Made by a program: the position numbers and the translations under genes. The notes under the pieces are model-generated. The model was not told the DNA's origin and ran no database searches. It saw only the letters and a program-made list of their open reading frames with translations. Source: an uncultured Gammaproteobacteria bacterium (GTDB taxonomy: Bacteria; Pseudomonadota; Gammaproteobacteria; JAURND01). From it: DNA of 64,000 bases. The stretch is taken from the NCBI GenBank assembly GCA_963813895.1, contig CAWFAS010000003.1, positions 543,914-607,913 of the forward strand. Direction: 5' to 3'. Numbering within the stretch: position 1 is the first letter of the stretch; the number at the start of each line of letters is the position of its first letter. This document shows, piece after piece, positions 24,539 through 47,604 of the stretch.

Positions 24539-24770
24539 ATTTGTTTGCTCCGTAGGTGAAATGAGTAAAAATCCTTAGGAAATCAGGGCAAGTTTTGTGG
24601 GGAATAGTCGCTCTTAGTGTCTTTGTAAGTACCGAGTAAGCCAGTTGCATTACTGCAACTGGCTCCTCTAAGAACGCAGCTTGCGACTTTCATCGCACTA
24701 CGCTCAAGCATTTTTTAAGACTGATTTTGTCAGTCCGACCATCTCATCCAGAGGCTCATTAAAACTCCAG

Positions 24771-30259: not shown

Positions 30260-30502
30260 TCACCCGGTGGCACGGGTGGTCCCTCGCTCTTTTGAGTGGG
30301 ACAACTTTTTTTGAGCGACTTCGTGTCGCAACTTCCAGTCTTTATCCATCTTTAACAGATATTTAGCAGCCTCCACCAGGAAAAATTCTTTGTCTGCAAC
30401 CCCGGCCCATTGTATGTACTGTTCTATCTCAGCATTCAGGGATTTAGGCAGCTTGGTTCTGACGGCCACTGTTTCCAGATTAACCGGTTTAATTAACGGC
30501 AT
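30260..30502 (-). CDS. small hypothetical protein (possible ribbon-helix-helix type); 3' end overlaps the presumed intron 5' region
   Basis: 80-aa ORF MPLIKPVNLETVAVRTKLPKSLNAEIEQY... No firm homology. Confidence 0.3.
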   Translation of the reverse strand: MPLIKPVNLETVAVRTKLPKSLNAEIEQYIQWAGVADKEFFLVEAAKYLLKMDKDWKLRHEVAQKKLSHSKERGTTRATG

Positions 30503-30881
30503 GATCGACTCCTTTTTTATAAATATATTTTAGATTTTATCTTAAGATAGCATAGGTTTTTTATCCTGGGTTGTCTATGGATTTTTCTGAAAATGCAGCG
30601 CCGTTTCTTATCTGGAGTAGGCCTGTGTTTTATATAAAAATCAACTATGGATAGGAGCTATTTTAGGTGCGTTGTAAGGTGTGCCGCTGCTAATTTGGCT
30701 GGCTGCAAACCACATTAAAACTTGGACCAAAATAAAGTAATTTTCCACACAAAACTTTGCTAAAATAATCGCCAAATTAGCAACAGCACGTGTGTACCCT
30801 GACGGGCTGCGCCCGTCAGGGTACACATTTTTTTGCGCAATATATATTGCTGATTTATAAAAGAAAAGAAAGGATTTTTAT

Positions 30882-32596: not shown

Positions 32597-33124
32597 TTAA
32601 AGCAAACCTGTTTCAGCAAAACTAAATACTTGCCTGCCTGAGACAATAAAATGGTCCAATACCTTAATATCAAATAACTGCAAAATCTCTACCAACCTTG
32701 TTGTGATAGCCTTATCCGCCGTGCTGGGGTTTGTGCTATCACCCGATGGGTGATTATGTGCCAGGATGAGATTAACCGCGTTTAATTCCAATGCTTTTTT
32801 TGCAACTTCACGCGGATACACATGTGTGTTGCTAACACTACCGCGAAACATGGGTTCAAATGCAATTAACTTATTGCGGCAGTTTAAAAAAGCAACCCCA
32901 AACACTTCATAGGGTAAGGCGGACAAATGCATGATAAAAAAATCTTTGGCAGTACGACAGTCGGTAAAAGACTCTTTTTCAATACCCTGTTGATTTAAAA
33001 TGTTTTTAGCTTGTTCAATAATCTCCGCGCCGGTAACAGGGCGGGTAGCAGTATAAACATTAGAGGTTCCCTCATTAACAAAAGCAACCTCAGTATGTGT
33101 GGATAAATTTTGATGCATCAACAT
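32597..33124 (-). CDS. radC: RadC-like JAB/MPN-domain protein (UPF0758)
   Basis: JAMM motif region LILAHNHPSGDSTNPSTADKAITTRL. Start placed at the Met preceded by AGGAGA at 33124 (the ORF track extends to 33256). Confidence 0.8.
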   Translation of the reverse strand: MLMHQNLSTHTEVAFVNEGTSNVYTATRPVTGAEIIEQAKNILNQQGIEKESFTDCRTAKDFFIMHLSALPYEVFGVAFLNCRNKLIAFEPMFRGSVSNTHVYPREVAKKALELNAVNLILAHNHPSGDSTNPSTADKAITTRLVEILQLFDIKVLDHFIVSGRQVFSFAETGLL

Positions 33125-33149
33125 ATCTCCTGATTGAAAAAAAACCCAC

Positions 33150-33200
33150 AACGGAAATATATCCCCGCAGGGAAATATATTTCCCTGAAGTTGGGGAATT
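33150..33200 (-). repeat. palindromic hairpin element (GGGAAATATaTCCCcGCAGGGAAATATaTTTCCC type) just upstream of the radC start; member of the intergenic hairpin family seen at 40.5-42.9 kb
   Basis: Compare with 42866-42915 (GGGGAAATATTCCCTGCAGGGATATTTCCCC). Confidence 0.55.
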
Positions 33201-33359
33201 TGAAAAATCACCGCATAAGACCATGTTGAGTTGGCGGCAAAAAAGCGCAAACCCACTTAGTTTATGGATGATAGTTGAAATGCAAGCAGAGCAGACTTGC
33301 GATAAATACGGTAATCTGTATGAAAGACAGTAAAGAGTCTAAAGACTACGTTGCGCGAA

Positions 33360-33480
33360 AGAAGAATCCCCGAGGATACGGGTACAACCACAAAACCATT
33401 ATGAAAAAAATGGCGATCAGGGGTTTTCATTGTGGCTACGCCTGATCTTCACTGCGATTTTGAGTCTTGCAGTGTTGGAC
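33360..33480. repeat. ~110-bp diverged repeat (AAGAATCCCC..GGAT.GGGTAC...TGGCGATCAGGG...GCTACGCCTGATCTTCACTGCG.TTT..AGTCTTGCAG) with second copy at 43560-43670
   Basis: The two copies share ~70-75% identity, including a 23-nt perfect block GCTACGCCTGATCTTCACTGCG. Each lies ~250-300 bp upstream (minus sense) of a core operon start: radC and ssb. Confidence 0.6.
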
Positions 33481-34317
33481 TTAAGTTTTCAATATTATAC
33501 CAGCTGATTTGCATGTCAAGCATTTCCAGATTGAGGTTATGCGGTCGCTTTAAAAAGTATTTTTAAAGGATATTTAGGCGGGCATTTCAAGAAGCTGCCA
33601 CGTCTTTCGGTTGGGAGCTGCAATCAATTCTGAATAAGTTTCGGCAGTATAGGGGTAGTGCTGACGGGATACTTAATCTCAAGAGCCAGTGTTTCTGCTC
33701 CATCAATACATCGAGAAGCTCTGTATCGTGCTGGTATCGCAGGCTCGAATATGGGTCGGTGAGGCGCGGCGGATGAAGCACGCAGCCAACTTCTACGCAC
33801 GAGTTTTCGCGCCTGGTTTCTTGGGCAGACTTTCGTGGCGGCTTGGATGCGGCGCTTGCATGGCCTGCTGCGCAGTCCATGCAAGGAGTTCGCTGTACTC
33901 ACATCTTCTCTTTAGGTGCGTCTTGTAATCCCTTGGATGAAAATCCAGGCGATGTGTGGATGATCCCCAATATAAAAGCCAATCATTGCGAGAAAACACT
34001 ATACCCATTTGCTGTGGTGACATGGTGATTCCTATAAACAAAATAATCCATCAAAGGTGATTATTTTGGTTGTATTGAGGAAGTCAAAAAGCGCATTCAA
34101 TTGTATTACGGAAAATGGATCCAATAATTTGGGCACTCAACTAAAACAGATAATAGGCAAACACGCTCCCATGTTGCTGTATGTCAAATCTCAACTCAAG
34201 GCAGCCATATTCGCTGCTGAATCTAAAACTAAAAATGACCATACATAAAATAGCTTAGAAAAACTATTTAATTGATGTTCATGATACGAGTCACCCAAGA
34301 ATCGGTATGACCCCCTT

Positions 34318-34421
34318 TTGATCGTTAGCTCCTAACGATTTTAAGAGGCAATTGCATTACCGTTAGCGCCTAACGATATTGACAAGTAATTATATTATCG
34401 TTAGCATCTAACGAAAATAAG
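34318..34421 (+). promoter_or_regulatory. array of three 18-bp palindromic operator-like sites (TCGTTAGCTCCTAACGAT, CCGTTAGCGCCTAACGAT, TCGTTAGCATCTAACGAA) immediately upstream of ORF 34431
   Basis: Each is CGTTAG-N-CTAACG dyad symmetry, spaced ~43 bp. Related sites occur at 34880-34897 (GCGTTAGGTTCTAACGA) and 38024-38042 (AGCGTTAGGTACTAACGCT). Confidence 0.6.
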
Positions 34422-34430
34422 AGAGATGAC

Positions 34431-34865
34431 ATGGCAAGAGCTAAATTTAAAATTGATTCTGAAAAAACATTCCGAATTATCCGGTATTTCATCGATGGCA
34501 TTGATAAATCTCGATGTTTAAAGCATCTTGAAGGACAAGTTCAGGCTCAAAAAGAGTTAAGGTTACTCTTTGATCGATATTTACAAACCGCCACAAGGGA
34601 TACAGCAAAGGATAGCGCTGAGATAACAGAGGAATTAAAAATTTGGTTGGAAAAATATGCTTCAGATAAGGATTGGACCAATTGCCTTGGGGCAATCCGC
34701 CAACGGTCATTTTGCAGCCTTAAGAAAATGAAAACTATTAAATTTCCCGCCAAAGCATATTACGCTATCTATTATTATGCAAACGATAGGGATTTGCCGA
34801 TGTGGGAAGCTGTTTTTCAACTCGTTGAAAAAGAGGAAAGTTTATTGCGCCAGGCCAGGGATTAA
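34431..34865 (+). CDS. hypothetical 144-aa protein, candidate DNA-binding regulator of the palindromic operators
   Basis: ORF follows three dyad operators, and a fourth lies just after its stop. No recognisable family. Regulator role is inference. Confidence 0.45.
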   Translation: MARAKFKIDSEKTFRIIRYFIDGIDKSRCLKHLEGQVQAQKELRLLFDRYLQTATRDTAKDSAEITEELKIWLEKYASDKDWTNCLGAIRQRSFCSLKKMKTIKFPAKAYYAIYYYANDRDLPMWEAVFQLVEKEESLLRQARD

Positions 34866-35209
34866 AAAATCCTTTGCTGAGCGTTAGGTTCTAACGATTA
34901 AAAGGAAGTCTGGTCGATTTGGGCGGGGGTCAAATCTGTAGGGAAGAGGTCGGCAGGGGGGGCTGTGTTTATTTATGCCTTTGATGGCATAAATAAATAT
35001 AGACCTCCTGCTGATTTTCGGGGGCGATCTTGGAAAGCTCTGACCACTTGTGTCTGTCTAGCCAAGGGCCTAAACAGTTACTAATTCTTTTTACGGACTT
35101 CACTTTCCTTTACAGTAATCAAAATGACCTGGATTGTCCGCTCACTTGATCTAGCCCTATTGTTCAATAAATAATTATTAAACAGCCAGCCTTATACAAC
35201 AAAAGCTAC

Positions 35210-37441
35210 CTAAGCCTCAGCCATTTGAATATTATATCTCTCGCATACATCATATAGTGCTTTAATAGAATATTTTTCTTCAGAATTGAGCTGCAGCCCA
35301 TTAATTATGCCAACATGCCTCATCAGTTGGTGCAGATCAATAATTTTTTTGTCAACAAGTATTGAGTCAATATTTTTTTTCAACCCTGACGTGATACTCT
35401 TGCCATAGAGGGAAATTGCGCAGAGAAACTTTAAAAATCCTTCTCCCGTGCGGATTAAATGATTTATCCATAAATTTTCCCCCTCTAAATCACCGCACTC
35501 AACCCACAATAAAAGAATTAAACCCAAATTTTTTAGCGACTCCAATTTACCGTTGTCCCGAGCTTTATGTATGATTTCTAATCCTAATTTTTGCAACAAT
35601 TCAATGTTTTCTTCTTCAAAGTTAGGATCATTACCGGTAGGACTTTTTATTTTATCTAATTCAGTACCCAACCAATACAAAGGAAGGTACACGCCATTAG
35701 TTTCTTTTAATGATTTCGAAATGCAGGTTAATTTTTTGTTTTTATCTGCTTCCGCTCTTATGATTCTATCAATAATAACGGTAATATATGTTTTTGTAAG
35801 ATCATAGGAGGGTTGAGATTGAGACAAACTATCGCCAAAATCAAACAGAACAATGACAAAATTAGATAAATTTTCCTTTTTAATATCTATAGGTGATTGA
35901 TAAAGTCTATAGATTAGTTTAGTTAAAATGTTATTTTTTTCTAGTACTTCAAAATGTTTCCGCAGTGCCTCAATATCTGCCGAATTAATTATAATTTTTT
36001 CAATTTCTTCTTGAGAAACCTCTCCTTCTGATAGCTGAAGCTGAAAATATCTATCGAAAAAATCAGGATGATATAATCTTAGACTGGATTCACCAATGTA
36101 TGGTTTATTAGTAAGGCGACCCTCAAAATATTTCTTCAAGTTTGGAAATAAATAACGTACAATATCTTTTAAACTCTCGTTTTTAATTATTGAATTAATA
36201 AATTTCCTGTTTTCTTCAAAAAGTTCCGGGCTTGAGGAGAAGTTTTCAATAAAATATTTTTTATATTTATAAATATTTTCGTAAAATTTTGGCTCGTATT
36301 GTCGAATTACCTCTAGTAAAATTAAATCCATAATATTTACTTCCAAGGTATTATTTGTTTTCATCATATTTAGTTGAAATTGAAAAATGGATATAAAGCG
36401 CTTAATATCTCTAAGGTTGTTAAAATATCCATAAAAATTTACCAACAATACTTTTTTCTGATAATAGTCATTCAAGTGAGATAAATTATTGTGAATAATA
36501 ATTTTTTCCATATTTTCATGGAAAAAACTATGAATTGCCTGAATGGATGGCTTTGGTAGCTCAAAAGGAACTTGAATAATTTTTTTTAAATATTCTGAGC
36601 CAGAAATCCCATCTTCATGAAGATGAGCTTCAACGATATCTCGTTGAAAGAAAAGTACATAAATTAAGTTTGGAAAATCTGAGTTTGCTTTAATTATTTG
36701 AAATAATAATTTAGTTTCATTCTTATTGAGCCTATCTATGTCGTCAATCATTGTGACAATAGGATTATCAAGTTCATTAAGTAGCTCAGCAACTTCCTCT
36801 TTTATGGTTTGTAAAGATTTATTTTCTTCAAAACTCAGGCAGTCATGAAGGACATCAAAAAAGTTAGCCAAGTAATCAGATAAACTAACAAATGATAAAA
36901 TAACAACGGGTATTAATAAAAGCCAATGAGAATAACCATTTAATAATTTTAAAAATGGAGTTACTCCAATTGCCCCCAAAATAGTAAAAATCCACTTATT
37001 ACTTTTACCCAATGGACGAAAAATTATAGACGCTATGCGTAAACGAAGAGCATATTTTTTTAGTTTCTTTATTATTTTTTCAATTTTCTTTTTATTTTCT
37101 TTATTCTTGCTAGAATATAATCCAATTTGAACTTGATTAAACAGTTCCTTAGCAATAGCATGTTGTTCTTGCCATTCCCACGGATTAAACTGAACAACTT
37201 TAGCTCTACCTTTCAAACACTCAATTATCATGTTTTTAACCGAGGATTTGCCACTCCCCCACTCACCATACACCCCTATAATCAAATTATCTTTATTTTT
37301 ATATTTAGATATAGTTGTGGCGATATTTTCAGCAAATTTAGCACGATTAAGAAGGTCATCTTTTTTGTTTTCAATGGCTCGGTCATTGAAGAAAGGAGAA
37401 TCTTCAGCATCACTTTTTTCCATTTCAATAGTCCTAATCAA
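35210..37441 (-). CDS. KAP-family P-loop NTPase with membrane-spanning insertion
   Basis: Walker A GVYGEWGSGKSSV near the N-terminus. Two hydrophobic helices inserted after it (IFTILGAIGVTPFL..., LLLIPVVILSFVSL), which is diagnostic of KAP NTPases. Walker B-like IDDIDRL. Confidence 0.8.
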   Translation of the reverse strand: MIRTIEMEKSDAEDSPFFNDRAIENKKDDLLNRAKFAENIATTISKYKNKDNLIIGVYGEWGSGKSSVKNMIIECLKGRAKVVQFNPWEWQEQHAIAKELFNQVQIGLYSSKNKENKKKIEKIIKKLKKYALRLRIASIIFRPLGKSNKWIFTILGAIGVTPFLKLLNGYSHWLLLIPVVILSFVSLSDYLANFFDVLHDCLSFEENKSLQTIKEEVAELLNELDNPIVTMIDDIDRLNKNETKLLFQIIKANSDFPNLIYVLFFQRDIVEAHLHEDGISGSEYLKKIIQVPFELPKPSIQAIHSFFHENMEKIIIHNNLSHLNDYYQKKVLLVNFYGYFNNLRDIKRFISIFQFQLNMMKTNNTLEVNIMDLILLEVIRQYEPKFYENIYKYKKYFIENFSSSPELFEENRKFINSIIKNESLKDIVRYLFPNLKKYFEGRLTNKPYIGESSLRLYHPDFFDRYFQLQLSEGEVSQEEIEKIIINSADIEALRKHFEVLEKNNILTKLIYRLYQSPIDIKKENLSNFVIVLFDFGDSLSQSQPSYDLTKTYITVIIDRIIRAEADKNKKLTCISKSLKETNGVYLPLYWLGTELDKIKSPTGNDPNFEEENIELLQKLGLEIIHKARDNGKLESLKNLGLILLLWVECGDLEGENLWINHLIRTGEGFLKFLCAISLYGKSITSGLKKNIDSILVDKKIIDLHQLMRHVGIINGLQLNSEEKYSIKALYDVCERYNIQMAEA

Positions 37442-37757
37442 AATTAATTAATAACTCAAAAAAAAGAGTACCCAACTGATAACTCAGTTAGGCACTTAAG
37501 CAATTATGCTACTCTTCAATTAATTGCTTGGCCAACGCCACTTCAACATTCTCAGCCTCCATGTTCAACACATCAAGACTGGTCTTGGGCATTGTCCCTG
37601 CGGTTGATTAACTCACCGCAATCTTCTTGGCCATCAGCGAAGGGCACTCTATTTGCGCCGTCCGTTTATAACCCAAAAAATGTACAGCCGCCGGTCGAGT
37701 CTGCCCGATACCCAACTACGTCGCGTCGCTTGCAGCAAAGTATATGGGCAGGGGGTC

Positions 37758-37946
37758 CTATTTGTGGGGAATATAGCTGCACAATAATGTAGCTGTTATG
37801 CGGCCATAAGAATTAATGAGCATAAGCATGCTTTGAAGCAGAATTTTAATCTCACTGCCAATTTTTTTGTTCACTGAGAGATGGTCAAGCTCCGACTTGA
37901 TCCGATCAACCTCTTCGCGCACTGATTGTTTATTAACACTGCTCAT
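37758..37946 (-). CDS. 62-aa hypothetical protein upstream of the KAP NTPase, downstream of operator-like palindrome at 38024
   Basis: Small ORF on the same strand as the KAP gene. Weak. Confidence 0.25.
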   Translation of the reverse strand: MSSVNKQSVREEVDRIKSELDHLSVNKKIGSEIKILLQSMLMLINSYGRITATLLCSYIPHK

Positions 37947-38023
37947 ATTATTCCTAGCGATCTAATTAAACTTTCGCTATTATAACATAGGTTTTTTTGA
38001 CCCTCGCAATTGCGCGCCATTTA

Positions 38024-38042
38024 TTAGCGTTAGGTACTAACG
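38024..38042. promoter_or_regulatory. operator-like palindrome AGCGTTAGGTACTAACGCT (same family as 34318-34421)
   Basis: Perfect dyad, ~80 bp upstream of the minus-strand ORF 37758-37946 and the KAP NTPase gene. Confidence 0.5.
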
Positions 38043-38110
38043 CTTAAAAGAAGTCATACGGATCTGTGCTAGCTCTCCATCGCGTTTAGTGACGCAATAA
38101 CATGCCTTTA

Positions 38111-38422
38111 TTAGAAGCAGTCAAGCGCTCTGCTGTAGCAGGACACGTTTTTAGTTATGCACCTGCCCCCGGGCCGGGCATTATTTGGATTGATCTTAAT
38201 AGCCTGCTCATAGGCCCTTAAAGCGACTTCCAACTTATCTTGTTGGTATAAGGTCAAACCCAAGTCCAGGACGATGCTTATAGTATCGCCTTTGACTTTG
38301 CCCAACTGTTGACCAGTGGGCAATTTGCCTTTGAGTAACTGAGTGGATAGCTCACTCTCGACAGTACCAAATAAACCCAATATTTGTGCGCCTTTGCCCA
38401 GTGTTTGATCTACGAGCAGCAA
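38111..38422 (-). pseudogene. TPR-like gene fragment
   Basis: Only ~25 aa (ALRAYEQAIKINPNNA) look TPR-like. Abuts the truncated copy of the 4.28-kb repeat. Confidence 0.25.
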
Positions 38423-38436
38423 TTATCATGAGCTAA

Positions 38437-38483
38437 AAAATAATGGCTAGCTTGGCCGATATTATTAATGGCTTGAGTGGATA
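38437..38483 (+). repeat. second (truncated) copy of the 4280-4330 repeat
   Basis: ATAATGGCTAGCTTGGCCGATATTATTAATGGCTTGAGTGGATAA versus ATAATGGCTAGCATGGCTGACATTTTTAACAGATTGGGTGGATA. Confidence 0.6.
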
Positions 38484-38916
38484 ATATACAATATCTGCAA
38501 ATTGTCCTTGAAAATTTACTGAATTAACCAATTTAGAATTTTTAAGTTTTCATTAATACAGGAGACTCATATAGTAACTGGCAAGAAACCCGCCTTCTTA
38601 GCAGCCAAAGGATTAAAAAATAAAAAAACGTGCCAAACTCCGAGAATAGTAGATGGAAGCGATTTAGCCCAACTTCAAGGAAGAAAACAACAAAAGCAAA
38701 AAATAGAAAGTAATTGAATTTGGAATAATTTGAGGCCAGTCAATTAGGCCACTCCAAAACGAAAAAAATACTATTTAGTCCGCTATGTGGCATAAATTTA
38801 CAGGCACAAGCTAAGAGAGAATTGCACCTCTATCGGGGAGTTCGATTGCGCTGTTTTCGCTGTAGCTGCGGGTAATCATAGATATCATTATTAACCTTCA
38901 TGGAGTAATTCAGTTA

Positions 38917-40122
38917 ATGAAGAATTTTGCGAATAATACTCGAGGCGATAATTCAATCCCTCAACTTAGAAAATCACGGGATGAAATTAATAAATTTCTT
39001 TCGGATCAGATCAGAGAAGGCAAAGAAAATTTTTTGGTGGTTGAAATTGGCAGCTCAGCCCAATTGGATGAAACACAAAGAGAATACAAAAAATGGAAAT
39101 CATCCAACAAAAACTATTTAACTATAGCATTTAGTAATGATCAATTTTCGAACCAATATGATAATACCTATGTTTCAATGGACATTAGAACTTCTAGAAC
39201 TCCTTTTTCAATGGAGGTAAAATATTTTAAAGATGAAGTACAGTCTAATATTGATAAGCTAATAGAAATTTTAGATACACTACCTCTATGTGAAACGACT
39301 CAATTAGAAAGCTCTGAAATACCTGTGAGTAACCAAGATTTCGACAATGTTGTTCTGGGTTATGTTAATAGTCAATCTCCTTCTCCCGTTAGATTCAATA
39401 TGGCAAAAATTGAAAAATTGACGGGGTTAAAAAATAATACAGAAAATGAAGGCGATCTTATACGATTTTTGCAAACTGTAGATTTTCTTGTGGATGAAGG
39501 TTATTTAAGATGTTCTTCTAAGCACATACGTTATGGCATGAACTATGATCTAATCCTGCAACTCGATCAGCTCGTTACTATTACAGAGAAGGGTAAAGAT
39601 AAAATAAAATCTAATCTTACACAACAGAATATCAAAATTCATGACAATAATAAAAAAGTCTTTATAGTGCACGGGCATGATGATACGGCCAAGCTTCAAG
39701 TGGCTTATTTTCTAAAAACAATTGGATTAGAGCCGATTATTTTACACGAACAACCAAACAAGGGTCGTACAATTATTGAAAAGTTGAATGATCATGCGCA
39801 GGAAGTCGCTTTTGCTGTAATATTACTCACGCCTGATGATATTGGTTGTGCTAAAAAAGAGTTTGATGGTGATGTTCAAAAATTGAAGCCACGCGCCAGG
39901 CAAAACGTGGTTTTGGAGCTTGGTCTTTTTATAGGTCTCTTAGGAGGAAAGAACGTTTGTGCTTTAATGAAAGGCGCTATTGAACAGCCTAGCGATTATA
40001 ATGGAGTACTTTATATCAATATGGATGAATCCGATGGATGGCAGATACGACTTATTAAAGAATTAAACGCGGCTAATTTAGATATTGACCATACAGCTCT
40101 TGTTACTTCCGGTAAAAATTGA
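38917..40122 (+). CDS. TIR-like (Cap12/Pycsar-TIR-type, COG4271) C-terminal domain protein with unknown ~230-aa N-terminal domain
   Basis: C-terminal KKVFIVHGHDDTAKLQVAYFLKTIGLEPIILHEQPNKGRTIIEKLNDHAQEVAFAVILLTPDD matches the TIR-like nucleotide-binding-domain signature. Confidence 0.7.
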   Translation: MKNFANNTRGDNSIPQLRKSRDEINKFLSDQIREGKENFLVVEIGSSAQLDETQREYKKWKSSNKNYLTIAFSNDQFSNQYDNTYVSMDIRTSRTPFSMEVKYFKDEVQSNIDKLIEILDTLPLCETTQLESSEIPVSNQDFDNVVLGYVNSQSPSPVRFNMAKIEKLTGLKNNTENEGDLIRFLQTVDFLVDEGYLRCSSKHIRYGMNYDLILQLDQLVTITEKGKDKIKSNLTQQNIKIHDNNKKVFIVHGHDDTAKLQVAYFLKTIGLEPIILHEQPNKGRTIIEKLNDHAQEVAFAVILLTPDDIGCAKKEFDGDVQKLKPRARQNVVLELGLFIGLLGGKNVCALMKGAIEQPSDYNGVLYINMDESDGWQIRLIKELNAANLDIDHTALVTSGKN

Positions 40123-40139
40123 TTCCGTTTAGTTGTAAA

Positions 40140-40492
40140 CCTGCTTTTTGGTTCTATAGGATCTAAGGCGGATTAAAGAACAACAGACCAAAACACTGCC
40201 TGGTAATGATGCAGTCCATTAAATCACCGTGGATGCAATGATTTAACAGCGATTTGGCGTGCCAGGCGCGTTCTTTATCAATTTCAACCCCATAGGCAGG
40301 GTGCGGGTTTGGACTAAAGGATGTTTGCATTCAGCCAATGCTAAGCCTTTTCCGGCAGTGGGATCAAAGATGGCCAGTTGATCACCACTTTCAGCGGGAA
40401 CTAAGGCATTTAAGATGCGCCCAGTATCTCGCTGTCAGTGGGAAAATAACCGAACTTGATAAAGTTTCGTGCCAGTCGTTGAAATAACATAG
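40140..40492 (-). pseudogene. 5' remnant of an N6-adenine DNA methyltransferase gene (frameshifted and truncated)
   Basis: Translation from the ATG at 40492 gives MLFQRLARNFIKFGYFPTDSEILGAS-stop. The next frame continues LNALVPAESGDQLAIFDPTAGKGLALAE, which is MTase motif X/I style (YFTP...; xLDPxxGxG). The ORF dies at the edge of the inserted TIR gene. Confidence 0.4.
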
Positions 40493-40511
40493 TGGTTTCT
40501 CCTGTGGTTGA

Positions 40512-40565
40512 AAATTAAAAGGAGAAACCATCCCCAGGGAGTTAGTTTCTCCCCGTTTGGGACTC
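40512..40565 (-). repeat. intergenic hairpin element (GGAGAAACCATCCCCAGGGAGTTAGTTTCTCCCC) upstream of the MTase remnant start
   Basis: Stem GGAGAAAC / GTTTCTCC read directly. Confidence 0.55.
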
Positions 40566-40602
40566 TATTTATTGCAGATCACGATACGATCTGCTTTATG
40601 GT

Positions 40603-40938
40603 TTACGCAGCATAGGAATATACATGCGGTTCCACCAATTGTTTAAAAGGTACTTTGAATATACTTCGGTCTCGCTCAATGGTCAGGGCCGATGGGCTAT
40701 GAGCAGACTTTAATTCGGATAAAGCAAAATAGCCTAATTCATTTTCAAAACCCTGCACAAATCCAAAAAATAAAAAATCCTTATCTTCCGGATACCATTC
40801 TCCCTCGAACACATACCATGTCCAGTTAGAATATGGTGAGAAGAATTTACAAATGACGATTCTCTCAGCCAAAGGCAGGTGTTCAGTTGCATACAATTTT
40901 GGTAATGCAGCTTTAATTTTTTGGGTTAATAACATCAT
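40603..40938 (-). CDS. DUF2958-family ICE protein
   Basis: Pattern ...LP.LY..E.....A...KFF.P...WTWY..E......D..FGFV.G.E.ELGYF.LSEL.......L.IERD..F matches DUF2958, common in ICE/plasmid leading regions. Confidence 0.7.
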   Translation of the reverse strand: MMLLTQKIKAALPKLYATEHLPLAERIVICKFFSPYSNWTWYVFEGEWYPEDKDFLFFGFVQGFENELGYFALSELKSAHSPSALTIERDRSIFKVPFKQLVEPHVYSYAA

Positions 40939-40957
40939 GATATTTCTCCTATAAAAA

Positions 40958-41010
40958 AATTTGAATCAGGAGAAATATCCCCGAAGGGAGCTTCTCCCTT
41001 CGGGTGTAGA
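40958..41010 (-). repeat. intergenic hairpin element (GGAGAAATATCCCCGAAGGGAGCTTCTCCCTTCGGG) upstream of DUF2958 gene
   Basis: Nested inverted repeats read directly. Confidence 0.55.
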
Positions 41011-41018
41011 ATATTAGT

Positions 41019-41669
41019 TTAACTATTGATTAACTTTTTTTTTAAAAAAGCTAAACCAGAATCATCTTGTCCTGAATCATCGTTCATGTCCATCGTCCAC
41101 CAGCTTGGCGGATCATCTCCTATCAATAAATAATGCCCATTGACGGAAATGACTGTATTATCATCCAACAAAATATGATCATTATCGATCCAGTTGCCCT
41201 CGCTACAAAACCTATCTTTCCAGCCCACTGCGCCTATAGGAACCTTTGCATTATAATGTAAGTTGCTATAGCTTTTGCGGGTGGCGGAAAAATAGAAAAC
41301 ATAACGAGTAGGCGGGATATTGACTAATGCACCGACTTTATGTTCACCAGATTTATACCCACTGGCGCACCATACCCGATCACCCGGCTGCAACAACCGA
41401 CGTATTTTGTTGTAAGGTACCTTCTCACGCACCTGCTCTACATTATCTTCAGTCACGACATAATGCCAATGCACCTGATAATGTATCTGCTCCAGGGTGA
41501 GCCGTAGCCTGAGTTTATCTTTTAAAAAGCGTGATGACTTCTCCAAGAAAGCGGCTGTTTGACTTAAAACAGCCATACTCAGGATTTTGACCCTCAGATA
41601 GACACGCAGTTTAAATCCAAATAAACCTTGTCTTAGACAATCAATTTTCTTTGAAAGTAAAGTTTTCAT
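41019..41669 (-). CDS. hypothetical ICE core protein (216 aa)
   Basis: ORF preceded by hairpin element + GGAG + ATG. No family recognised. Confidence 0.5.
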   Translation of the reverse strand: MKTLLSKKIDCLRQGLFGFKLRVYLRVKILSMAVLSQTAAFLEKSSRFLKDKLRLRLTLEQIHYQVHWHYVVTEDNVEQVREKVPYNKIRRLLQPGDRVWCASGYKSGEHKVGALVNIPPTRYVFYFSATRKSYSNLHYNAKVPIGAVGWKDRFCSEGNWIDNDHILLDDNTVISVNGHYLLIGDDPPSWWTMDMNDDSGQDDSGLAFLKKKLINS

Positions 41670-41692
41670 AATTTCTCCATAATTTAAAAAAA

Positions 41693-41760
41693 ATAAGGAG
41701 AAACCATCCCAACTGGGAGTTGGTTTCTCCCCAGCTGGGACTTGATTAGTTACAGATCAA
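41693..41760 (-). repeat. intergenic hairpin element (GGAGAAACCAACTCCCAGTTGGGATGGTTTCTCC) upstream of 41019-41669
   Basis: 10-bp stem GGAGAAACCA / TGGTTTCTCC with inner CCCAGTTGGG dyad. Followed (gene sense) by T-run, GGAG, ATG. Confidence 0.6.
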
Positions 41761-42002
41761 ACACAATCTGCTTCATTTCATTCAGAGTTGTTTCCGCCAT
41801 ATCAACCGCAAAACGCAGGAGAGCTGTTGTGATCATTTTTATCGGTAATAAACCCGCAATTTGAATCGCAGGAAAAACTGCCTATCCATAAAGCGACCAT
41901 CATTAAGCACAAAGCGGCCTAAGCTGCAATGTAGTAATGTGCCTTGCGAACTAATGTGAAGTGTACCACTTAAGGTAATCATTGAATTTTCCTCCTGGTT
42001 TA

Positions 42003-42070
42003 AAAATAGATGAGGAGGAAAAGCCCATAACCAGGGAGTTTCCTCCCCAAGGGGTGATTTGAAAATGACG
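42003..42070 (-). repeat. intergenic hairpin element (GGAGGAAAAGCCC...GGGAGTTTCCTCCCCAAGGGG)
   Basis: Followed (gene sense) by AGGAGGAAAATTCA-ATG of a possible 48-aa ORF (41839-41988). Confidence 0.5.
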
Positions 42071-42101
42071 CAGTCAGCTGACTGTTCATTGAACAACAAT
42101 A

Positions 42102-42461
42102 TTAATGTACCAGAGTATGTACTAACACAATGAGTGTAGAAACTGCTGCGGATAGAGCAGCAAGGCCAATCATCCAACCTGCTTTGAACGTGAAATCGAA
42201 CAAACGGGTACGGATTTCACCGCGGACTTGATCGCGTCTGCCTAAGGCGGTTTCGACAGAGGACAGGCGGCTTTCAACTTTCGAAAAACGCTCAATCATG
42301 TCGTGACGAAGACCGCTAATATCACGGTGCATCTCATGCCTGAGTGTAACGATCTGATCAACTACTTGAGTGATGGCTCTGCTCACAGATATCTCCACTT
42401 TTGAATCTACCAGTTCGGTTTGCAACTGGAACAACAATCTTGCTTGATCTTCGTAACGCAT
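42102..42461 (-). CDS. coiled-coil protein with C-terminal transmembrane anchor (ICE core, unknown function)
   Basis: 119 aa. Heptad-like N-terminal region. C-terminal hydrophobic helix GWMIGLAALSAAVSTLIVLV. Confidence 0.5.
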   Translation of the reverse strand: MRYEDQARLLFQLQTELVDSKVEISVSRAITQVVDQIVTLRHEMHRDISGLRHDMIERFSKVESRLSSVETALGRRDQVRGEIRTRLFDFTFKAGWMIGLAALSAAVSTLIVLVHTLVH

Positions 42462-42493
42462 AGTATAACTCCTTTAAAGACAGGTGGCGATGG

Positions 42494-42853
42494 TCAAACT
42501 TCATCAGGCGAAGTAGCGAGATGTTCACTATTTTCAATCCAGCCTTGGAGCGCCATCAGCCTGCCTTTAATTTGGAGCATATCCTTATCCCCTGCTAACC
42601 CTGAGTAGCAATGCCCGAAACTCGAATAATGCACGATAAACTGTAGCAAGATACATTCTCCGTTTCGGCAACGTTCCTTGAGTTCTTGCAGTTGCGTCAG
42701 CAATTGTGGTGTATCCACAATGCAATCAAGCTCAATATTTTCTGACCCATCCGAGTGAACCTTGATTTTAACCATGGTCCCTTGAGGTGTATCAGTAGTT
42801 TCAATCCAATGCCCATAACCGGACATGCAAAGTTTAAAGCTATTTTTAATCAT
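42494..42853 (-). CDS. hypothetical ICE core protein (119 aa)
   Basis: ORF with hairpin element + AAGGAGG + ATG upstream. Confidence 0.5.
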   Translation of the reverse strand: MIKNSFKLCMSGYGHWIETTDTPQGTMVKIKVHSDGSENIELDCIVDTPQLLTQLQELKERCRNGECILLQFIVHYSSFGHCYSGLAGDKDMLQIKGRLMALQGWIENSEHLATSPDEV

Positions 42854-42865
42854 ATTTCCTCCTTA

Positions 42866-42915
42866 AAAAATAAAAGGGGAAATATTCCCTGCAGGGATAT
42901 TTCCCCGCTAGGGTG
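42866..42915 (-). repeat. intergenic hairpin element (GGGGAAATATTCCCTGCAGGGATATTTCCCC) between ssb and the next gene
   Basis: Near-perfect 15-bp dyad, then (gene sense) TTTTATTTTTT, AAGGAGG, ATG. Confidence 0.6.
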
Positions 42916-42952: not shown

Positions 42953-43315
42953 TTAATCTGACAATGATTGCGACTCTTGTGCCGGTTTCTGATCCAAAAA
43001 CAGGAGTTTGGAAGCATAGATACCGGTATTAAACTGCCGCTGATTCTCTTTGTTTTGCCATTCGGTAGTACGTAATTCACCGGAAACATAAATGACAGAT
43101 CCTTTATTTAAATGATCTACCACAGATTTTCCCAGCTGATTATTAAAATACACCGTATGCCATTCAGTCACTTCTTCAGATTCCTCTTTGTCATTGGTAA
43201 TCCTTTTGGAAGTAGCCAGTGAGATTCGAACAAAAAGACCATTTTGAGTGGTTTTTAAAACTTCAGGGTCTTTACCTAAACGACCAATCAGTTGCATTAA
43301 ATTAAGTGATAACAT
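42953..43315 (-). CDS. ssb: single-stranded DNA-binding protein (short ICE-type SSB)
   Basis: OB-fold SSB N-terminus MLSLNLMQLIGRLGKDPEV...G......SLA.....W..V.... No long acidic tail. Confidence 0.7.
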   Translation of the reverse strand: MLSLNLMQLIGRLGKDPEVLKTTQNGLFVRISLATSKRITNDKEESEEVTEWHTVYFNNQLGKSVVDHLNKGSVIYVSGELRTTEWQNKENQRQFNTGIYASKLLFLDQKPAQESQSLSD

Positions 43316-43559
43316 GATGTTTTCTCCTTTGATTTAAAAAAATCCTTTGAGTACAAACACACATCTCCTTATGGAGAGGTTGATTTTCCTCGACAGGATG
43401 GGTTGATAAAAGCAAGACGCAACTTATTTCTGGTAATAATTAAACCGGAAGATAAATTTAGTAAAATCATGACAGCAGAATTACAGATAAACTGTAACAG
43501 AACGGCAAGAACCGTATTGAAAGTGGAAATAGCTTAAAGGCTATCGGAGGATACAGAAG

Positions 43560-43670: not shown

Positions 43671-43717
43671 GACTAATACAGATAATTTTACCCCAATTAT
43701 TTGTGGAAGCAATATTC

Positions 43718-44416
43718 TTATGCAGTAGTTTTCGCAGCACCTAACATGCTATCTAGTAAATATACAAATTTTATTTCTTTATTTAATATGGCACTGGGTA
43801 TCGTGCCCATTTTTTCTTTAGCCTGCTGGGCCAGATCATTGTTTTCGCGAATATCCTGACGTGTGACTTGCATTTTCCAGCCTAATGGCAAAGAAAATAG
43901 ATTGCGTATGCTGGATAGAATACGTAATGGCAATTGTTCAGGCTCCAGGAGTTGACCAACATGTCGCAAGGTATAAGCTTGTCGTGATACATAGTCCAAT
44001 TCAGGTAATAACGACGCGCCCATATAGCTAAATGGAATGGCAAATTTTAATGCTAATTGCATAGGTTCTGGATTTTCAAATACTTTGATATTAAAACCAC
44101 GCAATTGAGACAGACGCTGTTGACAATACTGCTCCAGCTCCTGAATTTCACTGCGGATGTTATGGATTTTTTCATCAATTTTCATAAAAAACCAATCAGC
44201 ATAGGGGTCGTCGGCGCGATGGCCTTTCCAGAGATCACGTACCTTGAGGGCATATTGCCATAATCCCAGTTTTCCATTACCCCAATTGCCTTGTAATAAA
44301 GTTTGCGCCAATTTGGTATGTAATGTTAAATCGATTTCGCCCTCCAGATACACTGGAGAACGTATGGGTGGTTTAGGGGTATAACTATCGTTATTGATTA
44401 TGGGTGAAGTCGTCAT
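43718..44416 (-). CDS. hypothetical ICE core protein (232 aa)
   Basis: ORF in the conserved block upstream of traD. Not assigned. Confidence 0.5.
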   Translation of the reverse strand: MTTSPIINNDSYTPKPPIRSPVYLEGEIDLTLHTKLAQTLLQGNWGNGKLGLWQYALKVRDLWKGHRADDPYADWFFMKIDEKIHNIRSEIQELEQYCQQRLSQLRGFNIKVFENPEPMQLALKFAIPFSYMGASLLPELDYVSRQAYTLRHVGQLLEPEQLPLRILSSIRNLFSLPLGWKMQVTRQDIRENNDLAQQAKEKMGTIPSAILNKEIKFVYLLDSMLGAAKTTA

Positions 44417-44427
44417 ATGTATTTCTC

Positions 44428-45552
44428 CTATAGCGGGATGTCGGTTGCGAAGCTGGATTGTAGAGGGAGTGATTTTGCTTGTGGTGGTAAATAGCTAACG
44501 TCCAAAATAATTCCTTCGATTACGAGGCGTTTTTCAAAACGGGCTGAACGATAGCGGTGAATTGTGTTAGTATTTTTTTTGATCAAATAACTATCGAGCA
44601 GTTGCAGTAAATTATCTTGTGGTGCGTATTGGGGATAAAGTTGGAGAAATTCTGCAATACGCTTTATGCCTATGAACAAACCGGCGGGGATGCGTAACAA
44701 TAGAGTATTTTCCACATTAAAATCCGTTGCAGTACATTGGTGATCTATCCATTCATTCAAAATATTTAGGAGCTGCGAAGGATTAGTTTTTTCCTCTTGT
44801 TCATCAGTGGTTGCATGGGGGCTCTGATGCTTTTGTATTATTGGATTGGCATCGTCTGGAGGATCTGTGTCCAAAGGGTAATTAATTTTTTCAGCAGCCT
44901 CACGGATAATTTCTGTCAAAACAGTAGGTGCTGTCGGATTTTCTACTAAAGTTGTCCACCAGACTTGAAAGGCAGTGGGGCAACCAGTTAGCCAACGCAA
45001 TGCAATTGATGGGACTATCCGACCAATGAGGGCAGCGCGGAATACCCATTCGTTGACGATGACGGGGTGAGATTTATTTTCAAGAGAATAAAATGTCGCT
45101 GCTTCGTATAAATTGCCGGCTAATGGATGCCAAAGACCCAATTTATTGCCGCCATTTTTAAATAGCGTGATAGTGCGATCGTGTTGTAGGTGATTTATTT
45201 GCGTGAATAGGCAAGCGGTAAATAATGCGTAGGTCCACAAGGGCTCTTGTTCGGCAATAGTTTCACTTTCTGATTGTAGGGGTAACATTTTGCCCCGCCG
45301 CAATTTTAATGCTGTGATTGCTAAATCCAGTTGCCGCTGTAAGAGGCTATAGGGTTTTGATTGATGATCAAATGACATCGCTTGGCAAAACGCCATAAAG
45401 CGATTTAGGGTTGTGAGATATAATTCCTGATAAATATCGAGCGGTGCACTGACGAGCTGTTTTAACTGAATAAGATGGGGCTGTAATGCTGGGAGCCTGG
45501 CAATTTCTTCCCCAGTCAGGCAGGGCAATAATTCATTGGACTGTTTTTCCAT
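44428..45552 (-). CDS. hypothetical ICE core protein (374 aa)
   Basis: ORF immediately upstream of, and co-directional with, traD. Confidence 0.5.
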   Translation of the reverse strand: MEKQSNELLPCLTGEEIARLPALQPHLIQLKQLVSAPLDIYQELYLTTLNRFMAFCQAMSFDHQSKPYSLLQRQLDLAITALKLRRGKMLPLQSESETIAEQEPLWTYALFTACLFTQINHLQHDRTITLFKNGGNKLGLWHPLAGNLYEAATFYSLENKSHPVIVNEWVFRAALIGRIVPSIALRWLTGCPTAFQVWWTTLVENPTAPTVLTEIIREAAEKINYPLDTDPPDDANPIIQKHQSPHATTDEQEEKTNPSQLLNILNEWIDHQCTATDFNVENTLLLRIPAGLFIGIKRIAEFLQLYPQYAPQDNLLQLLDSYLIKKNTNTIHRYRSARFEKRLVIEGIILDVSYLPPQAKSLPLQSSFATDIPL

Positions 45553-45573: not shown

Positions 45574-47604
45574 TTAAGCGGCTTTAGCCAAACAGACATA
45601 ATCCTGTCGCATCATACGCAGAATATTGTCTAAATCAGCGGGGATATCTATGTCATCCTGATGTGGCAAAGGCATTCGCAGTTTATGGAGATTCCCACCG
45701 GCAATTAGGCAAAATGCTTGGCCTTTGGGCAGATTTAGTACATCATTTTGTTCAATCAGCCGCTGTTCATTATGAGCAAAACGATCTTCGTTAGATGAGT
45801 GATAGAAAATCCCGTCCTCACCCTGTGCAGTGTCACTACTACTGGAAGCCGGTAAAACTCGTACAATCGGAACTCTGGGTAATTGCTCCAACAGCATCTC
45901 TACCGTGCGGGCCTCTTTGCAGCGGAACATCACCACGGTGCCAAAATTCCCAGCGACTTGACCCGCTTTGGCAGCGGTCTTGAGGCGCGCTTCTACATCA
46001 GACCATGTTTGTGTGTAGGCGATTACGGTAAAACCAGCGCCGCGGCCTTTATTCAGCAAGGGGATAAATTCATCGCCGATGATTTCGTTAAATTCGTCGC
46101 TGTGTACGCAAATGCGTGGGAGATTGTGATTTTGTGTCGCGGATTGATAGAAACCGTCGTACAGGCCATATTTATATATGCGACCTGCCACAGAAACCAA
46201 ATCGGAAAACATGGCGTTGCCTACGGCGGTTGACACTTCCCGGTCAGTCAATGCATCCAGCCCCACGTAGACAATTTGCTTATTACGAATAACCTGTAAC
46301 CAATCCAGTATAGGGCGCTGGTCTTCTGTGTTTTCGTAATCGGGAGATAATAATTCCGCAACTTTACCTGTGGTGAGTTTCTTTAGCAGCGGGCCTAATG
46401 ATGCAGTAATTTTACTGAAATACTCTTTGTCGTATTTACAAGCGTTATGTAAATCATCAAACACTGGATTGTGGAGTAATTCATGGTTTTGTACATAAGC
46501 AATTAAAGCCTCCAAGCGAGCAACCTGTTTTTTTTCTGTACTTTTTTCCGCCATATAGGACTTCACCCATTGTTCTAGCTCTTTATCAATGGAGGGCAAC
46601 CAAAAGTTCAAGTATTTTTCTAGCAGTAAATCCATTTTGGTGATGTAAAATTTCATCTTCTGGTAGTCGGGTTTTTCGCCCATCGACACCAGGGCTAATG
46701 CCATTGAATTGATAAACTGCCAGCCGAAATCTTTAAAAGCTGCGGAATCTCCAGAGCTGGGTAATTGATTGGAAATGCGGTTAGCCACCTCAGTAACACG
46801 GGTGAAATTACCGACGGGATTGTAGCGCGCAGAGATTTGCGGATGCCCTAAATGAATGATAAGTAAATCCTGTTCACGCCCGACTAATTTAGCTTCAGTA
46901 TAAATACGTTTAAGTAAATCAGCATCGCCTTTTGGATCAAGGACAATGACTACATCACCGCGTCGGATATCTTGGGTGATAAGTATTTCGGCAAAGCGAG
47001 TTTTTCCCATGCCTGGTAATCCAACTACCACCATGTGGCTTGCGCGGTCGGCAAGATTAATTGCAATGTCTCCTTCTTTTTCTGAGACTCCATGCAGACA
47101 AGGCTGACCACCGATGTCAGGATAAGGTTTGAAGGGATTCCAGGGGGCATCTTTTGCCAGGCATTTTGCCAATGCTTTGTATAAAGGCTTGTACTCCCAT
47201 TGTAGTTCTTTTCGTCGCGCCCATTGTTTCAGGTTTGAGGGGTTTTTATAGTGGAGATTGTATTGGAGATCCAAGTCACGCAGACGTTGAGTGTGGGTTG
47301 TAGTCCATAGAAATCCCTTGCCTAAAAATAGTTTGCGATCACTGGCTGGAATTTGTTGAGAGTTGATACGGTATGTTGGCATACGCTTCAGATTGCACTG
47401 GTAGCGGAAGACGCGATAGCCTTGCCTTACGCGTATCAGGCTGATGGCAAGCAGAAGAATGGCAGTGGCATATTCCAGGGCATGAGGCATTAAAAAGGCT
47501 TCAGGCCAAGCCAGAAGTAATAAGGCACCTGTGCTGGCTGCCAATGCGCTGTACCACTCCAACGGTGGGCGCAGTAAACCCTCCAGAGGTTTTTGCATCG
47601 ACAT
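45574..47604 (-). CDS. traD: type IV coupling protein (TraD/VirD4 family)
   Basis: Two N-terminal TM helices. Walker A VVGLPGMGKT. Walker B-like hydrophobic run ...IVYVGLDALTD. Typical T4CP size. Confidence 0.85.
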   Translation of the reverse strand: MSMQKPLEGLLRPPLEWYSALAASTGALLLLAWPEAFLMPHALEYATAILLLAISLIRVRQGYRVFRYQCNLKRMPTYRINSQQIPASDRKLFLGKGFLWTTTHTQRLRDLDLQYNLHYKNPSNLKQWARRKELQWEYKPLYKALAKCLAKDAPWNPFKPYPDIGGQPCLHGVSEKEGDIAINLADRASHMVVVGLPGMGKTRFAEILITQDIRRGDVVIVLDPKGDADLLKRIYTEAKLVGREQDLLIIHLGHPQISARYNPVGNFTRVTEVANRISNQLPSSGDSAAFKDFGWQFINSMALALVSMGEKPDYQKMKFYITKMDLLLEKYLNFWLPSIDKELEQWVKSYMAEKSTEKKQVARLEALIAYVQNHELLHNPVFDDLHNACKYDKEYFSKITASLGPLLKKLTTGKVAELLSPDYENTEDQRPILDWLQVIRNKQIVYVGLDALTDREVSTAVGNAMFSDLVSVAGRIYKYGLYDGFYQSATQNHNLPRICVHSDEFNEIIGDEFIPLLNKGRGAGFTVIAYTQTWSDVEARLKTAAKAGQVAGNFGTVVMFRCKEARTVEMLLEQLPRVPIVRVLPASSSSDTAQGEDGIFYHSSNEDRFAHNEQRLIEQNDVLNLPKGQAFCLIAGGNLHKLRMPLPHQDDIDIPADLDNILRMMRQDYVCLAKAA

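Follow-up and report, generated by a model that had tools for sequence, protein, structure and literature searches.

The ICE and its ssb-to-radC module

The window analysed here is a stretch of 64,000 nucleotides (64 kb) from an uncultured gammaproteobacterium (assembly GCA_963813895.1, contig CAWFAS010000003.1), and it carries an integrative and conjugative element (ICE) of the PFGI-1/ICEclc/PAPI-1 class. The ICE adjoins a tRNA-Thr gene, which is followed by the integrase gene. On the minus strand are found, in order, genes of an MPF_G-type type IV secretion system (TraC, TraG_N, conj_TIGR03755), the coupling protein, a PFGI-1-class MobH relaxase, a PFL_4669/AcaB-like protein and ssb. The genes that follow, down to radC, are separated by a family of hairpin elements, designated E1 to E6: behind ssb lie E6, two genes for proteins of 119 amino acids (aa), E2, a DUF3275 gene remnant, E3, a gene for a 216-aa protein, E4, a DUF2958 gene, E5, a frameshifted DUF6094 methyltransferase gene interrupted by about 7 kb of cargo, E1 and finally radC (Table 1). 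The hairpins are limited to this ssb-to-radC module of the ICE. Two of the module genes are decayed: the DUF3275 gene survives as a 47-aa N-terminal fragment with a 28-aa open reading frame (ORF) behind it, and the DUF6094 gene is frameshifted after 26 codons and truncated at the start of the cargo. E2 and E5 are still intact although the genes downstream of them have decayed.

An initial annotation of this DNA had described at least six related palindromic hairpins placed in front of successive ICE genes. Sequence inspection bears this out. Six copies lie at the sites indicated, all on the minus strand (gene sense), each followed by a U-rich run, a Shine-Dalgarno sequence (SD) and the ATG of the next gene, and each showing an inner CCC-N-GGG dyad between arms of the type GGAGAAAC/GTTTCTCC or GGGGAAATAT/ATATTTCCCC; they form one family of structured elements standing 5' of successive ICE genes. 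The ends first given fall short of the SD, while the functional element reaches the start codon.

A regular expression for the repeated dyad followed by a T run (CCC-N-GGG ... CCC-N-GGG ... T4) gave eight matches in the window, as opposed to 0.10 +/- 0.29 in 200 dinucleotide shuffles, and an nhmmer profile recovered exactly these six sites over the 64 kb. A plain MAFFT alignment proved structurally unusable, hence a covariance model was seeded from the single copy E4 (R1) and iterated once. With filters off, the same six sites were retrieved from the 64 kb, at 86, 53, 41, 40, 33 and 24 bits (E = 3e-19 to 6e-4). Beyond these, profile and model matched only the same palindromes read on the opposite strand and a few weak, unrelated sites, at E values of at least 0.015. 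The six-copy pattern is far beyond chance. A putative degenerate seventh copy upstream of ssb was matched by nhmmer at E = 1.3 and was not recovered by the covariance model in the 64-kb window; at the same position clear elements are present in two related loci, L001 (7865-7952) and L007 (9006-9091).

Anatomy and predicted folding

Read in gene sense, an element consists of segment a (CCC-N3-4), segment b (GGGGAGAAAC), segment c (CUCCC-N'-GGG), segment d ((AU)GGUUUCUCC), a U-rich stretch of 10-16 nucleotides (nt), the SD (GGAGAAAC...) and the AUG. Segment b closely mimics the SD and spacer of the next gene, and segment d is the complement of that SD and spacer, i.e., an anti-SD. Three mutually exclusive helices can thus be drawn: H1, in which a and b pair with c (CCC-N4-GGGGAG / CTCCC-N4'-GGG), T, in which b pairs with d, and H2, in which the SD and spacer, at times also the AUG, are paired with d. 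T encloses a small CCC-N-GGG hairpin, usually has a U tract behind it, and is the fold that the initial annotation had seen. Between d and the SD/start region 8-12.5 bases are paired in all six copies.

The minimum free energy (MFE) structure predicted for the full-length RNA is H1 followed directly by H2 in six of six window copies and at 44 of 49 parsable catalogued start sites, and the linker between H1 and H2 measures 0-3 nt in 34 of 37 copies. The predicted probability that the SD is unpaired is 0.000-0.03 in five of the six window copies and 0.2 in E6. Opening the SD arm would cost 9.4 kcal/mol on average (range 4.2-16.3); the median SD opening cost is 11.0 for module genes and 4.5 for 46 other starts of the window (p = 0.01). 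When the RNA is cut just before the SD, the predicted MFE structure is T in four of the six window copies and in 25 of 37 overall. The stability of T in the window copies ranges from -14 to -25 kcal/mol, and in four of the six (E6, E3, E5, E1) it resembles a canonical intrinsic terminator. The U tract is good in these same four copies (in E1 it is a U8 after an extended stem) and poor near the stem in E2 and E4; at least five U within 8 nt after the d core were counted in 22 of 37 copies.

Table 1. Coordinates and predicted properties of the elements and neighbouring genes in the window. Folding z values refer to the RNA from the start of H1 to the AUG.
Feature	Coordinates	Strand	Context	Segments	Full fold (kcal/mol)	z	RNA cut before the SD (kcal/mol)	Model R2
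E6	42851..42913	-	Upstream of 119-aa gene, downstream of ssb	H1 5' arm 42913-42902, loop 42901-42898, H1 3' arm 42897-42887, anti-SD d 42885-42875, U-rich loop 42874-42864, SD arm 42863-42852, AUG 42853-42851	-30.6 (H1+H2)	-5.3	T hairpin -19.6, then UUUUAUUUUUU	53.1 bits
E2	41980..42053	-	Upstream of 47-aa DUF3275 gene remnant	H1 42053-42024, d 42022-42013 (UUUUCCUCCU), loop 42012-41997, SD arm 41996-41987 (AGGAGGAAAA), AUG 41982-41980		-1.7	T -22.3	32.8 bits
E3	41667..41739	-	Upstream of 216-aa gene	H1 41739-41708 (CCCAGCUGGGGAG / CUCCCAGUUGGG), d 41707-41694, loop 41693-41682, SD arm 41681-41668, AUG 41669-41667	-33.0	-5.1	T -24.6, then UUAUUUUUUUU	40.8 bits
E4	40936..41004	-	Upstream of DUF2958 gene	H1 41004-40980 (perfect 11-bp stem, CCCGAAGGGAG/CUCCCUUCGGG), d 40979-40967 (GAUAUUUCUCCUG), loop 40966-40952, SD arm 40951-40939 (UAGGAGAAAUAUC), AUG 40938-40936	-37.0	-7.9	H1 (-21.7) preferred over T (-14.3)	
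E5	40488..40563	-	Upstream of frameshifted, truncated DUF6094 methyltransferase gene (start 40490)	H1 40563-40530, d 40529-40520 (GGUUUCUCCU), loop 40519-40504, SD arm 40503-40494 (AGGAGAAACC), AUG 40490-40488	-31.1	-4.5	H1 -17.9, T -17.8 (isoenergetic)	39.9 bits
E1	33122..33197	-	Upstream of radC; ~7 kb inserted cargo between E1 and E5	H1 33197-33162, d 33161-33147, loop 33146-33137, SD arm 33136-33122 incl. AUG	-28.1	-3.6	Single long hairpin closed by CCCCAAC/GUUGUGGG, then U8; -23.5	24.2 bits, E = 6e-4
Putative degenerate seventh copy	43313..43375	-	Upstream of ssb	Short hairpin UCUCCAUAAGGAGA, then GAUGUGUGUUUG, part-complementary to GGAGAAAACAUCAUG		-2.0		
tRNA-Thr	2167-2242		Adjoins the ICE					
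Integrase gene	2249-3424							
Coupling protein gene	45574-47604	-						
MobH relaxase gene	44428-45552	-						
PFL_4669/AcaB-like gene	43718-44416	-						
ssb	42953-43315	-						
119-aa gene	42494-42853	-	Behind E6					
DUF3275 remnant	41839-41982	-	47-aa fragment; with 28-aa ORF, 41750-41982					
216-aa gene	41019-41669	-	Behind E3					
DUF2958 gene	40603-40938	-	Behind E4					
DUF6094 methyltransferase gene	40160-40490	-	Behind E5; frameshifted, truncated					
radC	32597-33124	-	Behind E1					

Cognate pairing and covariation

Each element was compared with its own gene and with those of other copies. The duplex between the upstream arm and the SD is more stable for cognate partners (-14.6 kcal/mol) than for non-cognate ones (-11.2 kcal/mol), and none of 100,000 permutations was as good. 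In 37 cleanly parsed copies the same holds for each helix taken separately: cognate and non-cognate energies are -17.1 and -10.8 kcal/mol for H1 (z = -15.6), -11.8 and -7.6 kcal/mol for T (z = -12.4), and -13.3 and -7.1 kcal/mol for H2 (z = -16.2). Copies found by a regular expression blind to the SD follow the same trend (8.07 vs. 6.33 +/- 0.21 paired bases).

Compensatory changes can be read directly at orthologous sites upstream of DUF6094 genes, where the pairs UGGUUUCUCC/GGAGAAACCA, GCGUUUCUC/GAGAAACGC and GGGUUUCUCC/GGAGAAACCC replace one another. Among 45 model-aligned copies, 92.4% of the cells are paired compared with 68.4% after shuffling, the covariation score is 0.626 (0.227 shuffled, 0.10-0.13 with slid partners), and changes on both sides are seen in 24 of 24 pairs. 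For 55 independent copies from related elements, those of the window being excluded, the values are 89.2% vs. 67.7% and 0.534 vs. 0.202, with 0.08-0.14 for slid partners; the covariation check that the initial annotation had proposed thus came out in favour of both H1 and H2. Judged by these comparisons and by the modelled folds, each of the three alternative helices is maintained by compensatory change, and one of them is predicted to bury the ribosome-binding site (RBS) of the next gene.

These constraints also bear on the statement that the copies are too similar to one another to have arisen separately. Their likeness is largely explained by constraint instead: the copies look alike because b mimics the SD, d complements the SD and c complements b. 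With b, c and d tied to an SD of the GGAG(A/G)AA type, unrelated leaders of this design converge on GGAGAAA/UUUCUCC. Over the region from H1 to d, paralogues of the window are 52-84% identical, and positional orthologues of the window and L001 64-83%. As the two ranges are alike, the family is old rather than recently spread, with each copy co-evolving with its own gene. The 84% identity of the E3/E5 pair suggests some local homogenisation.

Distribution among related elements

The 216-aa protein has two database relatives only, one of which is encoded on a syntenic ICE of a gammaproteobacterial metagenome-assembled genome (MAG), the locus L001. An element of the same kind, differing in sequence, is present there at each orthologous intergenic site; the E2 orthologue (9312-9384) is 83% identical. 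The family of the 119-aa protein led to more loci from MAGs and metagenomes, in which elements again stand ahead of module genes, and the E5 orthologues of L001, L007 and L016 precede intact DUF6094 genes. The design is kept at orthologous sites among relatives that show 42-77% identity in the neighbouring proteins. In a second ICE from the same sample as the window (L017), an element at 426-499 (R2, 26.5 bits) precedes an ArdA gene, ArdA following a 114-aa homologue; this supports an anti-defence or leading-region character of the module.

A search for related plasmids at the DNA level found nothing, while the protein-level search with DUF6094 yielded pKLC102 of Pseudomonas aeruginosa, a Nitrogeniibacter plasmid and Vibrio plasmids. 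In all of these the three-helix design is found before many homologous module genes, in differing sequence and G+C contexts. Copies of pKLC102 lie, e.g., at 3112-3171 and 3733-3810 of the locus L021. No Rfam family matched at the gathering threshold in the window or in six related loci, and at E <= 10 only chance-level matches fell over the elements.

A proposed attenuator and translational lock

We consider it probable, on the strength of covariation and modelled folds, that the elements, one ahead of each gene of the ssb-to-radC module, are cis-acting three-helix attenuators combined with a translational lock. With the polymerase at the U tract, T would form and attenuate transcription, the A-rich loop of H1, which is part of b, presumably serving as a toehold for d. 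In RNA that is read through, b would be recaptured into H1 and d would clamp the SD, giving the translational lock. By default each cistron would therefore be weakly expressed and insulated against read-through from upstream, and translation would take place only in the short window while T persists, or once the SD is released by some factor or event. Such a release might come from a factor binding segment a or stabilising T, from a cut in the U-rich loop, or from ribosome standby on that loop (PMC5934652).

The two levels do not carry equal weight. Since about 40% of the copies in relatives lack a U tract, termination cannot be the sole function, and because of these copies, together with those in which the truncated RNA does not prefer T, the case for attenuation is the weaker of the two. 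In our view the switch at the SD is thus what the elements are mainly for, with termination an extra often seen in AT-rich hosts.

Several points weigh against this reading. Truncated RNA prefers H1 over T in 11 of 37 copies, including E4, and 15 of 37 have no good U tract while keeping the three helices; examples that retain T are those of L019 at 8332 and 11572. At equilibrium the modelled design is OFF at two levels, and the model is incomplete on the trigger that would turn it ON. All folds are thermodynamic predictions (RNAfold), with kinetics and proteins outside the energy models, and the operon arrangement and promoters of the window are presumed. Model-fitted alignments bias covariation counts toward the modelled structure, a bias of which the permutation tests are free, and the catalogue of copies was curated by us and partly ascertained through H1/H2. 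Finally, plasmids of Rhizobium, Enterobacter, Ralstonia, Tistrella and P. veronii show no evident copy of the design ahead of DUF6094; it is common, not universal.

A number of candidate triggers and functions were tried and rejected. An RNA thermometer does not fit, given that the predicted probability of an unpaired SD is essentially constant between 20 and 60 C. Direct coupling, with a terminating ribosome unwinding H1, was rejected as a general mechanism, the distance from stop codon to H1 being 1-122 nt (median ~36). For a riboswitch, an aptamer core is absent, H1 stems and loops vary freely, and no Rfam family is found at a gathering score or meaningful E value. A CsrA/Rsm target is disfavoured as the GGA lies inside stems in every fold; tblastn, a weak test here, finds no CsrA homologue in the window or loci, and host CsrA is still possible. 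The same weak test detected no ICE-encoded Hfq, RfaH/NusG or ProQ/FinO in these sequences, and hence no candidate for the antiterminator or RNA-binding protein that the initial annotation had raised. A trans-acting small RNA from the 38-nt box upstream of radC (see below) gave duplex energies with the elements no better than those of shuffles, and a mini-ORF from the GGGGAUGG junction is not conserved. A promoter in the U-rich loop would have no room between d and the SD, and the sole hexamer match (40965-40937) would put the transcription start inside the gene.

Alternative explanations

The elements had initially been interpreted as intrinsic terminators or attenuators that partition a long operon. 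The terminator-like T fold and its U run stand, but the role of d as an anti-SD and the alternative helix H1 had been overlooked. Taken on its own, the explanation by plain Rho-independent terminators or attenuators, in which the complementarity of the 3' arm to the SD is functionless, seems unlikely to us. It accounts for the canonical appearance of T and the U tract in E6, E3, E5 and E1, for T being the preferred fold of RNA cut short of the SD (25 of 37 copies) and for the U bias of the H2 loop (54% U, 25% A). A terminator, however, needs no pairing between d and the SD, yet this pairing is cognate-specific (z = -16) and covaries through a variable spacer at orthologous sites; H1 covaries too (z = -15.6), the 15 of 37 copies without a usable U tract keep three helices, and the sequence right after the stem is U-poor in E4 and E2.

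A second explanation, which we think improbable, is that the elements serve RNA processing or stability: an endonuclease such as RNase E would cut the U-rich loop, leaving the upstream fragment with a protective 3' T and the downstream SD free. The AU-rich single-stranded loop of 10-16 nt between stable helices and the preference for T in RNA ending before the SD speak for it, and repeated intercistronic hairpins are known from other mobile-element operons, e.g., the early RNase III sites of T7. Nevertheless, a d:SD duplex of 10-13 bp would not fall apart unaided after the cut. An RNase III site is a near-continuous duplex of about 20 bp, whereas the helices here, at 8-15 bp, are short for this enzyme, and T measures 12-17 bp with a bulge. 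In this view processing would be the activating step, and it would be compatible with the proposed lock as its missing trigger.

It is very unlikely that the hairpins function in the strand transferred as single-stranded DNA (ssDNA), whether as ssDNA promoters, for priming or for protection against nucleases. The module does resemble a conjugative leading region, with genes of that type (SSB, ArdA in the sister ICE L017, an orphan methyltransferase, an SNF2 helicase and RadC), and it adjoins the relaxase and coupling-protein genes (for the background on leading regions, see PMC13478746). Known ssDNA promoters of the Frpo type, however, are long imperfect hairpins with -35 and -10 boxes (PMC13478746), while the elements span 50-60 nt and lack such a pair. 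That they covary with SD and spacer speaks for a role at the mRNA level, the sense strand gives the more stable fold (-28.7 vs. -25.9 for the antisense strand, p = 0.001), and G.U pairs are common (80 of 987, 8%). A Frpo-like promoter upstream of ssb was also looked for, and the template strand there gives only small hairpins (z = -1.9).

We attach next to no weight to mobile palindromes, of the repetitive extragenic palindromic (REP)/bacterial interspersed mosaic element (BIME) or miniature inverted-repeat transposable element (MITE) kind, that landed between the genes by chance. Several similar palindromes do lie within 10 kb, with E3 and E5 84% identical, but nhmmer and the covariance model found no copy outside the module in the 64 kb or in the related 20-kb loci, so that the scattered REP-like copies that would have spoken against an ICE-specific family did not appear there. 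Moreover, the elements occupy orthologous positions with diverged sequence in distant relatives, each fits its own SD, and there are no target-site duplications or terminal repeats. Double-stranded operators for a dimeric ICE regulator on the CCC-N4-GGG dyads are just as implausible in spite of the symmetry of the dyads and the AcaB/PFL_4669-like regulator encoded nearby, given that N4 differs in every copy with complementarity retained (structure is conserved, not sequence), that G.U pairs and strand asymmetry favour RNA, and that the sites lie 60-75 nt upstream of the starts with no promoter between them and the SD.

Comparison with known systems

The closest formal parallel to the proposed lock is found in the expression platforms of translational riboswitches (anti-anti-SD/anti-SD/SD), in which three exclusive helices are formed, an SD mimic rivals the SD for the anti-SD, and the OFF state buries the RBS. 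Unlike these, the ICE elements are aptamer-less, carry a plain, variable H1 hairpin, belong to no Rfam family and are repeated before six or more successive genes. The trp leader of Bacillus subtilis combines a terminator/antiterminator with a hairpin that blocks the trpE SD, and transcripts escaping termination refold so that the SD is sequestered. Two-level control by alternative RNA folds is common to both; the trp leader, however, is a single leader relying on TRAP at (G/U)AG repeats, whereas the elements form a family in which no such repeats or protein were seen. Intrinsic terminators and attenuators in operons share with the elements a G+C-rich fold, followed in most copies from AT-rich hosts by a U tract, but in the ICE the 3' arm doubles as a gene-specific anti-SD, there is a covarying alternative in H1, and around 40% of the copies are without a U tract.

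Metastable and anti-SD structures are also known from type I toxin mRNAs such as hok. In hok and in aapA3 (PMC6733600), as is proposed for the ICE, successive anti-SD hairpins keep the mRNA of a mobile or accessory element translationally silent, and refolding or processing activates it, although toxin mRNAs are single and have antisense RNA partners, and neither an antisense RNA nor a toxin was found for the ICE elements. In the psl mRNA, an SD:anti-SD stem-loop is stabilised by RsmA, which binds GGA motifs (PMC2984543). This 5' leader is likewise a translational lock made of an anti-SD:SD hairpin, but it depends on RsmA, while the elements have their GGA buried in stems, and the weak tblastn test turned up no csrA/rsm gene in the window. 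Lastly, REP/BIME palindromes and the early RNase III sites of T7 are, like the elements, families of related hairpins between successive genes; the elements differ in being undispersed, in having helices too short for RNase III and in covarying, each with its adjacent SD.

Other features of the ICE

A 38-nt box, CTGCAAGACT..AAA.CGCAGTGAAGATCAGGCGTAGC, occurs twice in the window on the minus strand (43665-43628 and 33472-33435), the two copies being 92% identical. Each lies about 20 nt downstream of a promoter-like site, namely TAAAAT near 43690 on the ssb side and a near-consensus TTGACA-17-TATAAT at 33519-33491 on the radC side, upstream of E1/radC. The box contains GGCGTAGC, which is one base short of the ops core. 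The radC-side copy ends in a hairpin followed by GCCATTTTTTT and may represent either a small RNA or an attenuator in the leader, and a related leader of about 140 nt stands ahead of the module in L009 (9170-9310). The box and leader regions gave no Rfam match, with only chance-level ones at E <= 10.

Further hairpins were noted. A strong palindromic hairpin, GTGTACCCTGACGGGCTGCGCCCGTCAGGGTACAC, followed by T7, lies at 30790-30835 (plus strand), and the same core is present in a different ICE, L009, at about 14142 (minus strand); its arms are the H1 arms of an L010 element (2426-2492), making it an H1-type hairpin without the anti-SD part. In several intergenic regions, extra small independent hairpins, e.g., GCAGATCGTATCGTGATCTGC and CAGTCAGCTGACTG, fill part of the interval from the upstream stop codon to H1 (40574-40594, 42071-42084 and about 8395-8412 of L001).

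Two candidate defence genes lie in the cargo inserted in the module (35210-37441, minus, and 38917-40122, plus); their products are a P-loop NTPase of the KAP family and a protein whose TIR effector domain is of the CAP12/Pycsar type. Three group II intron RNA matches, two of domain V/VI and one of D1-D4, were found on the minus strand in the ICE cargo (16360-16445, 24631-24707 and 30143-30279); group II intron or reverse-transcriptase genes are also present in L016 and L018.

Implications

The principles involved are known, while the multi-copy, ICE-wide arrangement is apparently new; the leaders are not described in the literature that our searches found, including the papers on the ICEclc transcriptome and on ssbB of the gonococcal island. 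A wider reading, which we put forward tentatively and hold to be possible rather than probable, is that they constitute a widespread, previously undescribed class of modular three-state RNA switches gating nearly all ssb, anti-restriction and "maintenance" (probable leading-region) genes of PFGI-1/ICEclc/PAPI-1-class ICEs and related MOBH/MPF_G plasmids in Beta- and Gammaproteobacteria. The module would then be silent in the resident, double-stranded state and expressible only in some particular state, such as shortly after arrival in a recipient, during processive antitermination with the conserved 38-nt box at the two points of transcriptional entry as its signal, or once the RNA has been processed.

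ICEs of this class (PAPI-1, pKLC102, ICEclc and relatives) disseminate virulence, catabolic and resistance genes, and the SSB, anti-restriction and methyltransferase functions of the ssb-to-radC module are probably decisive for establishment in a new host. If every gene of the module is indeed controlled in this way, post-transcriptional control would be a main layer of ICE regulation that has been overlooked by transcription-centred studies, and RNA locks would explain why the intergenic hairpins are so alike. Given that pKLC102 of P. aeruginosa carries the same design, the proposal is directly testable there. For RNA biology, it would provide a compact, aptamer-less switch in which the 3' arm of a terminator serves at the same time as anti-SD for the gene that follows, and of which dozens of natural covarying instances exist.

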